Shown here in pieces: positions 12,001 to 18,000 of a stretch of DNA of 64,000 bases. The DNA is taken from the NCBI RefSeq assembly GCF_057098645.1, contig NZ_JBXSPU010000002.1; one strand, written 5' to 3'. Position 1 is the stretch's first letter. Each line of letters starts with the position of its first letter. Source of the stretch: a plasmid. A program made the position numbers.

Positions 12001-15000
12001 GGAAGGTTTGATTGCCAGTATGGAGGCTGCAGCTTCGGTGGCATCTTCCCATCACTGTTCTGAACTGGATGAACTTATCGGACGACAAAAATCATTACGT
12101 AAGCTTGGACGACTCATTTTCAGCGCTTTTTCTTTCAGAGCTTTTCGCCCGGATGATAGCGTTTTGTTGGCGATTGGGTATTTGCAGGCGTTCTATCATG
12201 GCCGAAAATTACCCAAACAAATTCCGCTCGATTTTATGTCCCATAAATGGCGACGTCGTGTCATCCATGGAGAAAATACCGATCTGCAGGCGTGGGAAGT
12301 CGCCGTATTCGTTCATTTGCGGGAACGCCTGAAAACAGGTGACATATGGGTTGATGGTAGTCGGGCCTGGCGTAGTTTTGAGGACTACCTTCTTCCTCAC
12401 CATGTTTTCGGGCAGATGCGGGCAGAATCCCGGCTGGGACTTGCCATTCCGGACAACTTTGCTGAATGGCGGGCTGAGCGAACCACCACACTCAACGCAA
12501 AACTGAAAGCGCTGGCAAAAGCTGCTTCGGAGAATGCCATACCCGATGCAGAACTTTCCAGCAGAGGGTTGTCTGTGTCTCCGATTCGCGAAGAAGAGAG
12601 CGACAAAATTAAGGCTCTCAGCCGTAAACTCTACATGCTGGTACCACGCATCAGAATTACCAGTTTGCTGGCAGAAGTTCATAGCTGGACCAGTTTTCTT
12701 GATTGTTTCACCCATTATCGCACCGGGGAACAGGCGGAAGATGAAGCTGCACTTATGGCTGCGATCCTTGCCGATGCGACGAATGCGGGAGCAGAACGGA
12801 TGGCGCAGAGTTCCCGGGGTGTCACCATTCACCAGATGATGGTAATGATGGATCGTCATTTACGCACTGAAACCTATGCGTCTGCCACATCAGTTCTGGT
12901 CGATGCGCAACAGGAACATCCTTTTGCTGCTATATGGGGGGATGGGCATGTGTCATCCTCGGACGGGCAGTTTTTTCCTGCGGGTGGACGAGGAGAAGCC
13001 AGCCTCGAATATAACGCCAAATACGGCAAACGACCTGGCGCGTCGATTTATGGTTTTTTATCGAACCGTTTTGCATCCTTTTTTTCCAGAATGATTCAGG
13101 CCTCTGAAAGCGAGGCTCCCTACGTACTTGACGGCTTACTTCATAACGAAAGTTCTGTGGTAATTCATGAGCATGCCACCGATACAGCCGGTGCGACTGA
13201 AACAACATTTTCAATGTTTCACTCTTTTGGTTACAGACTCATACCCCGTATTCGCAACCTCGGCAGTCGCAGGTTGTACGTTATTTCCCCCTCAGAGGAA
13301 TATAAACCACTTGATGCCCTGATCGCCGGAAAGGCCAAAATGGAAGTAATAGAACAGCACTGGGATGAAGTTCTGCGGCTTAAGGCCTCGATCGGCGCTG
13401 GTCTGGTACCACCATCGGTAATACTGAAAAAGCTGGCAGCATCTCCGAGACAAAACAGGCTCAATCTGGCCCTGCGTGAAATGGGACGTATTGAACGCTC
13501 AATTTTTATCTGTGACTGGTTGCTTGACACTCGGTTACGTCGCAGATCACACGCAATCCTCAACAAAGGCGAAAGCCGCCATGCACTTGCCCGCGCTATT
13601 TTTCTTCACCAACTGGGCGAATTCCGGAACAGGGCTGCCGAGACAATGGCTCACAGGGCATCGGGCCTCAACCTTGTTGTTAATGCAATAATTCTGTGGA
13701 ACACGGTCTATCTCAGTCGGGCTGTTGATTACATTCGCAGCCAGGGGATCATTATACCGGAAGAGCTCTTGTCCAGTGTATCACCACTACCATGGGGTCA
13801 TATCTCGCTCACTGGAGATTACCTGTGGAACGAAATTGACCATCCCCTTGAACGATACAGGCCACTTCGTACTAATCGCTTCAATCCAAAGAACTTCACT
13901 TTTCCTTAGCGTGTGTTATCGCAGAAATGCCCACGGAACCCCTATGAGCGCAAAAGGTTGCTGCTACGATAATGCCTGCGTGGAAAGCTTCTTTCATTCG
14001 CTGAAAGTGGAATGTATCCATGGAGAACACTTTATCAGCCGGGAAATAATGCGGGCAACGGTATTTAATTATATCGAATGTGATTACAATCGGTGGCGGC
14101 GGCACAGTTGGTGTGGCGGCCTCAGTCCGGAACAATTTGAAAACAAGAACCTCGCTTAGGCCTGTGTCCATATTACGTGGGTAGGATCACAGAGGCAGTT
14201 CCAGTGTTAACATGAACCGCCGTATGCGGAGCCGCATGTACGGTGGTGTGATAGAACCACGGCAGCCTGGCGGCTGCAAATTGAAAACCGCCCCGGTTCG
14301 TCCTGTTGTTGCCGCACGCCCCGCAGAATATGTATGCTCTGAGGACCTGTTTTATTAAGGACTCATCCCCTTATGTTGACCCGCAAAAGTATCGATACAG
14401 TTCTGCTCTCTGTTGGTGCTGAGAAGCTCTCACAACGAGAATGGGACTGGATGAAAATGCTCAAACCCATGGACCCACCACCTGCGATGGTGACGACCTC
14501 CATCCTGAAGCGCCGTGGCGATACAGCAGCCCTTACCCTGCTACAGGATACCGGGGTTTAATCCATCCTCATGTTGTCCGGTTTTACTCCCCGCCCTCTG
14601 AAACGTCTGTTCACAGCCAACCAGTGCTGGACGTCCTTCCTGGATGCGGGCGGTCTGCGCGATATCGAGGTTGAAGCCGTCACCAAAATGCTGGCCTGCG
14701 GCACACGGATACTGGGTGTAAAAGAGTTCGGGTGTGATAACCCGGACTGTCAGCACGTAAAGTACCTGACCAACTCATGCGGCAGCCGTGCCTGCCCGTC
14801 CTGCGGAAAGAAGGCCACAGACCTGTGGACAGCAACACAGCTGAATCGTCTTCCTGACTGCGACTGGGTACATCTGGTCTTCACCCTGCCGGACACGCTG
14901 TGGCCGGTGTTCGAAAGCAACCGCTGGCTGCTGAATGACGTGTGCCGTCTGGCGGTGGAGAATCTGCTGTTAGCGCCAGTGATATAAGACGGTAATTCAC

Positions 15001-18000
15001 CATTTGGATTGTCCGCTCCACCCAACATGTTGTTTCCTTAAGGTTCTCACACCAAAAAGGACATCAACATGCTGAGCAGAGAGGACTTTTACATGATAAA
15101 GCAAATGCGCCAGCAGGGCGCGTACATTGTCGATATTGCGACTCAGATTGGTTGCTCTGAACGAACGGTCAGACGTTACCTCAAATACCCTGAACCGCCA
15201 GCCAGAAAAACCCGCCACAAAATGGTTAAGCTGAAACCGTTTATGGATTACATCGACATGCGCCTGGCAGAGAATGTCTGGAATAGCGAGGTTATCTTCG
15301 CGGAGATTAAGGCAATGGGCTATACGGGCGGACGTTCCATGCTGCGTTACTACATCCAGCCCAAACGTAAAATGCGTCCGTCAAAAAGAACAGTTCGCTT
15401 CGAAACTCAGCCCGGATACCAGCTCCAGCACGACTGGGGCGAAGTTGAGGTGGAAGTTGCCGGGCAACGGTGCAAAGTTAACTTTGCGGTTAATACGCTG
15501 GGGTTCTCCCGCCGCTTTCATGTCTTCGCTGCCCCAAAACAGGATGCTGAGCATACCTACGAATCACTGGTTCGCGCCTTCCGCTACTTCGGTGGTTGTG
15601 TGAAAACGGTGCTGGTTGATAACCAGAAGGCTGCGGTGCTGAAGAATAACAACGGGAAAGTCGTGTTCAACTCCGGATTCCTGTTGCTGGCTGACCACTA
15701 TAACTTCCTGCCACGGGCATGCCGTCCACGCAGGGCCAGAACAAAAGGTAAGGTTGAGCGGATGGTGAAATACCTCAAGGAGAACTTCTTCGTCCGGTAC
15801 CGCAGGTTCGACAGCTTCACTCATGTCAATCAACAACTGGAGCAATGGATAGCCGATGTGGCTGACAAACGGGAGCTTCGTCAGTTCAAAGAAACGCCGG
15901 AACAGCGCTTCGCGCTGGAGCAGGAACATCTGCAGCCGTTACCCGATACGGACTTCGATACCAGTTACTTCGACATCCGCCATGTGTCCTGGGACAGCTA
16001 TATCGAGGTTGGTGGTAATCGTTACAGCGTTCCCGAAGCGCTGTGTGGTCAGCCGGTATCGATACGAATATCGCTGGATGACGAGTTGCGGATCTACAGT
16101 AATGAGAAACTGGTGGCCTCACATCGCCTCTGTTCGGCATCGTCTGGCTGGCAGACAGTGCCGGAGCATCACGCCCCGCTCTGGCAGCAGGTCAGTCAGG
16201 TGGAACATCGGCCACTGAGTACCTATGAGGAGCTGTTGTGATGCATGAGCTGGAAGTCCTGCTGAGTCGCCTGAAAATGGAGCATCTGAGTTATCACGTT
16301 GAAAGCCTGCTGGAACAGGCAGCTAAAAAAGAGCTGAACTACCGGGAGTTCCTGTGCATGGCGCTACAGCAGGAATGGAACGGCAGGCATCAGCGGGGTA
16401 TGGAGTCCAGGCTGAAGCAGGCTCGTCTGCCGTGGGTCAAAACGCTGGAGCAGTTCGACTTTACCTTCCAGCCGGGCATCGACCGTAAGGTTGTTCGGGA
16501 ACTGGCTGGTCTGGCGTTCGTGGAGCGCAGCGAAAACGTGATCCTGCTGGGACCTCCTGGTGTAGGAAAAACGCATCTGGCCATAGCTCTTGGCGTGAAA
16601 GCGGTGGATGCGGGACATCGGGTACTGTTTATGCCACTGGACAGACTGATCGCGACACTGATGAAAGCGAAACAGGAAAACCGGCTGGAGCGTCAGCTAC
16701 AGCAACTGAGTTATGCCCGGGTGTTGATCCTGGATGAAATAGGCTATCTGCCGATGAACAGAGAGGAAGCCAGCCTGTTCTTCCGGCTACTGAACCGTCG
16801 ATATGAAAAAGCGAGCATCATACTGACGTCAAACAAAGGGTTCGCAGACTGGGGAGAAATGTTCGGAGATCACGTGCTGGCAACAGCGATCCTGGATCGG
16901 CTGCTACATCACTCAACCACGCTGAATATCAAAGGAGAGAGTTACCGGTTAAAAGAGAAACGTAAAGCTGGAGTGCTGACCAAAAACACAACGCCAATCA
17001 GTGATGATGAAATGGTGAAAAGCGGACAGCATCAGTAACGAAAGTATTTTAGCGGGCATGAAAATGGCAAATAACGGTCAAACATCGTGGCGTTGACATC
17101 TGCTGTATGCCGCCCGAAAACGGGGGCTGGAACCCGGTATCTTCTGCGCCATCCACACGTATGGCCGTCGTCTCAACTGGCATCCGCATGTACATGTGTC
17201 TGTAACCTGTGGAGGTCTGAATAAGCATGGTCAGAGGGGATGGCAATGCCGGAGTCGTTGTCACATATCACGACGGAATCACAGTGGAGAAGCCTGGTGC
17301 TGAAATCCGGCGGAAAATACTGGCATGTGTACATGTCGAAGAAGACAGCCGGAGGGCGGAATACGGCACGCTACCTGGGTCGTTATCTGAAGAAGCCACC
17401 AATAGCGGCTTCCCGACTGGCTCATTACAACGGAGGGGCAAGCCTGAGCTTCCGTTACCTGGACCACAAAACGGGAGAAACGGCGACGGAAACGCTGACA
17501 CAGCGTGAGCTGGTCGCGAGGCTGAAACAGCACATCCCGGAGAAGTTTTTTAAGATGGTGAGGTACTTCGGGTTCCTTGCCAACCGTGTGTGTGGAGAGA
17601 AGCTGCCGCAGGTGTACCGTGCACTGGGGATGGATAAACCGGAACCAGTGGCGAAAGTGTGCTATGCACAAATGGTGAAACAGTTCCTGAGTCGTGACCC
17701 GTTCGAATGCGTGCTGTGTGGCTGCCGGATGGTATACCGCCGGGCCATTGCGGGGCTGAATGTATCAGGGCTGAAGAAAAACGCGCGGGATATCAGTCTA
17801 CTGAGGTATATGCCGGCCTGACACAGGCTAAGTGTGCCCGGGAATCGGTGAAAGTATAAAAAACAGCCTGTTACGGTATAAAAATCGACCATACAGAGAG
17901 GGAAACCACCGGAGTGGTGGGAAAAGCAGAAAGGCTCACGTGGCATAAGGCGTGGACAATGGTATCGACTGGTTTTTCAATTTCCTATACGTGAACAGTG

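Follow-up and report, generated by a model that had tools for sequence, protein, structure and literature searches.

The window considered here is a stretch of 64,000 nucleotides from a plasmid contig (NZ_JBXSPU010000002.1, RefSeq assembly GCF_057098645.1), read on one strand from 5′ to 3′; the host is a pO157-like Escherichia coli virulence plasmid, rich in insertion sequences (IS), with an ecf/lpxM region, a toxB-like gene, a type II secretion cluster and an IncFII repA. Within the window lie two copies, in direct orientation, of IS1294, a rolling-circle element of the IS91 family with a transposase of the HUH/Y2 type: a disrupted copy A (14254..17992, plus strand, 3739 bp) and an uninterrupted copy B (43535..45222, plus strand, 1688 bp). 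Copy A carries two lesions in its transposase gene, tnpA, namely the loss of 85 bp between two short direct repeats and the insertion of a complete IS21; its two ends, terIS and oriIS, are intact. The overall picture is, with high probability, that of an IS1294 which inherited its 85-bp deletion and afterwards, and recently, received the IS21, and in which neither copy in the window is simply the offspring of the other. This is ordinary mobile-element decay of known kinds, and nothing in it alters the accepted understanding of how IS91-family and IS21-family elements work.

Anatomy of the disrupted copy

The two copies were compared first by BLAST, with the intact region as query and the whole window as subject, and then by exact string comparison. 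Outside the two lesions copy A is 100% identical to copy B, in three blocks: 14254..14967 corresponds to 43535..44248 (714 bp, 100%), 17104..17234 to 44249..44379 (131 bp, 100%) and 17235..17992 to 44465..45222, the last reaching 762 identities in 762 positions once the adjoining GAAC (to 17996 and 45226, respectively) is counted. In other words, copy A is made up of a 1603-bp deleted IS1294, a 2131-bp IS21 and a 5-bp duplication, and if 14968..17103 is taken out of it and 44380..44464 is put back, copy B is recovered at 1688 of 1688 bases. Given the 100% identity over 1603 bp, together with a 5-bp duplication that is single-copy in the uninterrupted element, a chance resemblance is excluded. 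A preliminary description of the window had proposed such a doubly inactivated IS91-like copy, with a nested IS21-family insertion between TCTGC duplicates and with 85 bp missing between TGGTCAG repeats, and had named two different IS91-family members as the alternative; the direct alignment, in which the copies agree at every comparable base, upholds the former on each of these points and finds the same element in both places.

In copy A, tnpA codons 1-132, with the Zn_Tnp_IS91 domain, remain ahead of the IS21 (14571..14967, plus strand), which interrupts the gene at codon 133, between the zinc-binding and the catalytic domains, the frame continuing into the IS21 to a stop at 14987. The 85-bp loss, which puts the gene out of frame, begins at codon 177, right behind the HxH motif WHPHVH. 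Judged by the reading frames, each lesion by itself destroys the transposase of copy A. At the terIS end (14254..14290, plus strand) the constant GAAC cleavage tetranucleotide is followed by the subterminal palindrome GCAGCC-TGGC-GGCTGC, and beside the oriIS end stands a GAAC target tetranucleotide (17993..17996), which is also the left edge of the 25.5-kb segment discussed below. Upstream of tnpA lies an open reading frame (ORF) of 62 amino acids (aa) (14373..14561, plus strand), which is conserved in IS1294 copies and corresponds to the RefSeq hypothetical protein WP_000957857.1; a Pfam search with it returned no match. The finding bears chiefly on annotation: copy A is best entered as a pseudo-element of IS1294 that an IS21 interrupts, with no gene calls made on the remains of its transposase gene.

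Deletion between short direct repeats is a classic product of strand slippage or of microhomology-mediated joining. The first lesion would be of this kind, with 85 bp lost between 7-bp TGGTCAG repeats and the rest of the Y2 catalytic domain removed by the ensuing frameshift at codon 177. The second is a cut-and-paste insertion of a complete IS21 at codon 133, which gave rise to the 5-bp TCTGC duplication. As for their succession, the deletion would have come first, the 1603-bp allele already circulating in E. coli and being present at this locus before the recent arrival of IS21.

Identity and ends of the element

It is the intact counterpart that allows the element to be named. The tnpA of copy B (43852..45051, plus strand) is open for 399 aa, in which Pfam recognises Zn_Tnp_IS91 at residues 16-106 (E = 1.9e-21) and Y2_Tnp at residues 144-324 (E = 3.2e-57, positions 1-180 of 183), the motif WHPHVH being present in the translation. 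Copy B agrees at 1687 of 1688 bases (99.94%) with the element of MF510496.1, the ORF of which bears the annotation ‘Transposase of IS1294’; further records give the annotation ‘IS1294 transposase’ for matching copies, and more than 1,800 plasmid records hold copies at least 99% identical to copy B. By this identity to annotated database copies and by its domains, the IS91-like element is IS1294, the reference for which is Tavakoli et al. 2000, as cited in PMC13181058. At 44437 copy B has T, where canonical IS1294 has C, which leads to a rare substitution in TnpA, R196W; indeed, the exact copy-B transposase was found in a large assembly index only in three short Logan contigs. Base 44437 falls within the 85 bp missing from copy A and, because it sits there, the identity of the precursor of copy A is uncheckable at this one position.

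Elements of the IS91 family have a terIS with a cleavage tetranucleotide upstream of tnpA and an oriIS downstream of it, make no target duplication, and are flanked at oriIS by a target tetranucleotide, which for IS1294 is 5′-GTTC, 5′-CTTG or 5′-GTCC (PMC13181058). The left-hand GAAC (before CACGGCAGCC) is constant in all IS1294 copies examined, whereas the 4 bp after …CCTATACGT vary by locus, being GAAC, CAAG or GGAC among the nine copies with flanks read, and CAAG, not GAAC, in the MF510496.1 reference copy. It is because of this constancy on the left and variability on the right that IS1294 is delimited as GAAC…ACGT and the right-hand GAAC is assigned to target DNA, at copy B (45223..45226) as at copy A. 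The bounds first given for the two copies (14258-17996 and 43539..45226) accordingly had to be moved 4 bp to the left. The right flanks GAAC, CAAG and GGAC are the known IS1294 target tetranucleotides read on the other strand, and none of the copies whose flanks were read shows a target duplication. At terIS, directly after GAACCACG, the hairpin GCAGCC-TGGC-GGCTGC is perfect over 6 bp and visible by eye; at the oriIS end no convincing palindrome was recovered, and the energies obtained for the IS1294 ends, folded as single strands, did not surpass those of shuffled sequence.

With IS1294 the window's elements thus share the length of 1688 bp, the 399-aa zinc-finger and Y2/HUH transposase, the lack of a target duplication, the constant GAAC at terIS with its subterminal hairpin, and GAAC or CAAG at oriIS; they differ from it in the 85-bp internal deletion and the nested IS21 of copy A, and in the rare R196W of copy B.

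The window has a third, short stretch of IS1294-like sequence at 26272..26428 (minus strand), just past the gene of a group II intron reverse transcriptase/maturase (24554..25780). Aligned with the terIS end (43535..43733), it shows ~95% identity and a 41-bp gap.

The nested IS21

The element inserted in copy A (14968..17098, plus strand, 2131 bp) has TGT…ACA ends and the same orientation as tnpA. It contains an intact istA (15069..16241, plus strand, 390 aa, with HTH_23, rve and Mu-transpos_C_2 in Pfam) and an intact istB (16238..17038, plus strand, 265-266 aa, with the IstB_IS21 AAA+ ATPase domain in Pfam, E = 2.5e-90), the two ORFs overlapping at 16238-16241. Its ends read TGTTAGCGCCA… and …TGGCGTTGACA, within which an imperfect terminal inverted repeat of 11 bp, TGTnAnCGCCA, can be recognised. 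The duplicated target, TCTGC, stands at 14963..14967 on the left and 17099..17103 on the right, the left junction being …GGAGAA TCTGC / TGTTAGCGCC… and the right junction …GGCGTTGACA / TCTGC TGTATGCC…, while the same site in the intact copy, …GGAGAATCTGCTGTATGCC…, holds the only TCTGC of that copy (44244..44248). The insert is therefore 2131 bp long rather than the 2130 bp initially reported, the extra DNA in copy A amounting to 2136 bp (2131 + 5).

These boundaries are common to the copies of the element in the loci L002-L005, and several E. coli chromosomes and plasmids have full-length copies with 99.9-100% identity, identical ones being labelled ‘IS21-like element IS21 family’ by RefSeq. 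The nested insert is IS21, a name that it takes from these RefSeq product labels and from the element length. Because such near-identical full-length copies exist elsewhere in E. coli, this IS21 is taken as intact and currently active. The IS21 family is characterised by terminal inverted repeats with TG…CA ends and by a 5-bp target duplication in vitro (PMC10122671). The insert shares with the family its TG…CA termini, its 5-bp target duplication and the overlap of istA with istB, and there is nothing unusual about it; a repeat finder (seed 7) gave no clear terminal multi-repeats corresponding to the L1/L2 and R1/R2 of the family.

The searches covered 72,556 plasmids, 20,395 E. coli records and 5,426 complete E. 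coli genomes. The window as a whole is absent from the plasmids and from the complete genomes, and its IS21-in-IS1294 junction recurs in none of the plasmids and in none of the E. coli records. Since the junction is found nowhere else in these two collections, the insertion is probably recent. Several plasmids that seemed to hold the same nest were set aside. In Shigella sonnei pSS_046 and in p11PC-mcr1 the IS21 and IS91-family elements are merely adjacent, and in MMC-J-0078-type plasmids and pE200139_148 IS21 does lie within IS91-family genes, at other positions and with other duplications (GACA, 70 bp upstream; and a different element). Judged by these positions and duplications, the latter nests are independent events.

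IS21 lies independently in IS91-family transposase genes of other plasmids, at L002 2930..5059 and L005 2001..4131, where positions and duplications differ, giving three nests with that of the window; this may reflect either a preference for such targets or the mere density of IS. At 33452..33971, just upstream of the toxB-like ORF, the window contains remnants of another IS21-family element, whose identity to the nested IS21 is ~87%.

Origin and distribution of the 85-bp deletion

The heptanucleotide TGGTCAG occurs exactly twice in the intact element (44373..44379 and 44458..44464, with 78 bp between them, 44373..44464 in all), at both edges of the missing 85 bp, and it is the only such repeat pair in IS1294. 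What copy A has lost is one repeat unit together with the 78-bp spacer (44380..44464), such that its sole remaining TGGTCAG (17228..17234) is itself the deletion junction. In the databases the 85 bp are carried by thousands of records (with a matched span of 288 bp, as opposed to 203 bp in the query), and the tnpA ORF yields the full Y2_Tnp domain only when they are present, which is why the difference between the copies is taken to be a deletion. The converse, that the two copies are different IS91-family members or that the 85 bp were inserted or duplicated in copy B, can appeal to the bare length difference only and has a vanishingly small probability, given that the copies are 100% identical over 1603 bp, that thousands of IS1294 copies have the 85 bp, that with them the ORF reaches 399 aa and a full-length Y2_Tnp where without them the frame breaks, and that they are not a duplicate of neighbouring sequence.

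The deletion is far from private to copy A. An 81-bp probe of the junction found full-length counterparts in 31 complete E. coli genomes (32 records) and in 7 plasmid records. In five records the junction is 100% identical and belongs to complete 1603-bp deleted elements, each with different flanks; over the 1603 bp three of them are 100% identical, and two, from PEC240, have one shared single-nucleotide polymorphism (SNP). The plasmid pCAU16175_2 alone has three such copies: copy 1 with an EspG-domain gene to its left and the 25.5-kb segment to its right, copy 2 with toxB to its left and a peptidase fragment, an IS3-family element and tsh to its right, and copy 3 with a Tn3-family transposase to its left and the IncFII repA region to its right. 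Elsewhere the deleted IS1294 adjoins blaCMY-42 (pEC27-5), lies between pap2 and mcr-1.1 (EH01-18-02 chromosome), or has a peptidase fragment on the left and a RepB fragment on the right (pPEC240_1) or an IS903B fragment on the left and repA on the right (PEC240 chromosome). Other E. coli carry the deleted element at no fewer than seven unrelated loci, with complete ends and with one of the tetranucleotides GAAC, CAAG and GGAC beside oriIS. In PEC240 the plasmid and chromosomal copies are both deleted and both have the private SNP 43699 G>A, a combination that is hard to explain unless the element had lost the 85 bp before it was copied to its second site.

The simplest reading suggested by this distribution is that a defective IS1294 with intact ends has been mobilised by transposase supplied in trans. 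Like non-autonomous deletion derivatives of other IS, the deleted IS1294 keeps both of its ends and is found at many target sites with proper tetranucleotides, the difference being that in the present case mobilisation in trans is a reading of the distribution. Its position beside cargo such as blaCMY-42 and mcr-1 also recalls the one-ended transposition and cargo mobilisation of IS91-family elements. A broader proposal, which joins to this the notion that the pair of IS1294 copies marks a mobile 25.5-kb toxB/autotransporter unit, and in which the deleted IS1294 would be a non-autonomous rolling-circle element mobilised by intact copies such as copy B, is plausible, its chances being put at somewhat less than even. 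Were it correct, mobilisation in trans would account for the identical deleted copies at seven or more loci, including those near mcr-1 and blaCMY-42. A specific defective IS1294 allele is found across several E. coli replicons, where it stands beside resistance genes.

It must be considered, however, whether the 85-bp deletion is a recurrent hot spot that has arisen many times, for instance by slippage in a single-stranded transposition intermediate. The same junction is present in diverged IS91-family copies (85-96% identical; L002), among them pseudogenes that are 92.6-97.5% identical at the junction and ~85% identical downstream of it, and this weighs against a single inherited allele; the uniqueness of the TGGTCAG pair in the element points in the same direction, as does the fact that the toxB-side copy is deleted in pCAU16175_2 and intact in the window, within DNA that is otherwise 100% identical. 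This last state would nevertheless also be explained by gene conversion between direct repeats, and the diverged carriers belong mostly to one conserved plasmid locus beside type II secretion and acyltransferase genes. Moreover, deletions at 7-bp microhomologies are normally rare, the five records with a 100% identical junction are essentially identical over all 1603 bp, and the PEC240 copies share, at different loci, both deletion and private SNP. Repeated origin is, on balance, regarded as rather unlikely, if still a serious competitor to the inheritance of one deleted allele.

Probable order of events at the copy A locus

Three states of the locus of copy A are available for comparison. In pZ1323HEC0422-2 the same left junction, with its Tn3-family transposase flank, is occupied by an IS1294 that has neither lesion and has a 3′ truncation of its own; in pCAU16175_2 the same locus, with a left flank 100% identical to that of the window over 4.8 kb, contains the deleted IS1294 without IS21; and in the window it contains the deleted IS1294 with IS21. 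The most parsimonious series to be drawn from these sequences runs from intact to deleted to deleted with IS21, the IS21 being the last and most recent arrival. Because pCAU16175_2 has the deleted IS1294 at this very locus without IS21, the deletion would precede the IS21 and was probably inherited. The sister plasmids, in other words, provide a dated series of states for a single locus.

The truncation in pZ1323HEC0422-2 merits a description of its own. There the oriIS end of copy A has been lost by a deletion at an 11-bp microhomology, CTGACACAGGC, which is common to IS1294 and the neighbouring IS3 (L008 6990..7011, equivalent to 45049..45059 and 18630..18640 in the window), and which constitutes a second example of a microhomology deletion in the same element.

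The segment between the two copies

Between the two IS1294 copies, which bracket it as direct repeats, lies a segment of 25.5 kb (17997..43534). It contains an IS3-family element, an ORF with EspF repeats, a 1327-aa autotransporter, a group II intron, IS66 and ISL3 elements, PerC and a 3009-aa toxB-like ORF. From 17098 to 44379 the window is 100% identical to pCAU16175_2, in which the segment again lies between two IS1294 copies, both of them deleted, with entirely different outer flanks. Conversely, the outer flanks of the window (Tn3 transposase on the left, IncFII repA on the right) surround a single deleted IS1294 in pCAU16175_2. In two other relatives, which have one IS1294 or none, the segment again ends at the same GAAC positions, and the site on the toxB side is unoccupied (…CTTTCGT GAAC AAAATAG…); one of the two, pRHBSTW-00863_2, lacks IS1294 at either edge.

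As these comparisons delimit them, the IS1294 copies are the joints at which the 25.5-kb toxB segment is exchanged. The most likely route would be homologous recombination, by which a unit of segment and IS1294 entered a resident single IS1294, or the reverse of this process, by excision. One-ended or read-through rolling-circle transposition from copy B was considered for the origin of the segment and fits its GAAC edges; it is kept as an alternative only, as taken alone it leaves unexplained both the single IS1294 of pCAU16175_2 and the relative that has copy A without copy B. Because the segment is exchanged at IS1294 joints, the sequence of copy B can properly serve as the reference for that of copy A, though copy B is probably not its literal parent. 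The suggestion that the two copies form a clean before-and-after pair within one window consequently stands in part: they are the same element, and both events can be seen by comparing them, but the deletion was very probably not made here from the neighbouring copy, and copy B is itself one base (44437) removed from canonical IS1294, inside the 85 bp.

The more direct history, in which copy A is a transposed duplicate of copy B within this plasmid and was then deleted and interrupted by IS21 in place, would agree with the identity of the two copies at every comparable base and with the proper IS1294 junctions that both possess. It is improbable for all that. In pCAU16175_2 this very locus has the identical deleted element, free of IS21, and six or more further loci have it too; in the same plasmid one IS1294 links the outer flank of A directly with that of B, an arrangement that favours recombination over transposition from A to B; and the rare R196W base of copy B lies in the 85 bp, exactly where identity is uncheckable.

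The preferred account, of an inherited deletion followed by IS21 and of an exchanged segment, faces further difficulties besides the diverged junction carriers. The order of events depends on a common ancestry of the locus in the window and in pCAU16175_2; an independent identical deletion is possible. The right outer flank is ~96% identical to that of pCAU16175_2, such that the single-IS site is homologous and not identical. Finally, pZ1323HEC0422-2 has copy A and the segment without copy B, and one integration cannot explain all of the plasmids.

In its edges, which fall exactly at IS1294 junctions, in its occurrence with other outer flanks, and in the single IS found between the window's flanks in a sister plasmid, the 25.5-kb segment resembles IS-bounded translocatable units, such as those of IS26 or the segments flanked by ISCR/IS91 elements. 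It departs from them in that pZ1323HEC0422-2 has the left copy only and pRHBSTW-00863_2 has neither, the route being either recombination or rolling-circle read-through. Its significance lies in the apparent exchange of a toxB-bearing virulence segment between F-type plasmids, with IS1294 copies as the joints.

The toxB-like ORF itself (34226..43255) is open for 3009 aa in the window, and the near-identical toxB of pCAU16175_2 bears a pseudogene annotation, which cites a frameshift and an internal stop. Over the part compared, 41244..44379 of the window, the two sequences differ by one mismatch and one gap only.

Neighbouring mobile elements

Copy A is flanked by IS3-family sequences that face it from both sides and are ~93% identical to each other: an end fragment of 247 bp (13943..14189, minus strand), 64 bp to the left, and a complete element of ~1.26 kb (18078..19335), 81 bp to the right. 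The window also contains pieces of a second, different IS91-family element, at 9107..10181 and 30301..30863 (minus strand). The former has a 329-aa ORF that matches the NCBIfam profile transpos_IS91 and ends beside Tn3-family resolvase and transposase genes, its DNA being ~92% identical to the elements at L002 and L005.

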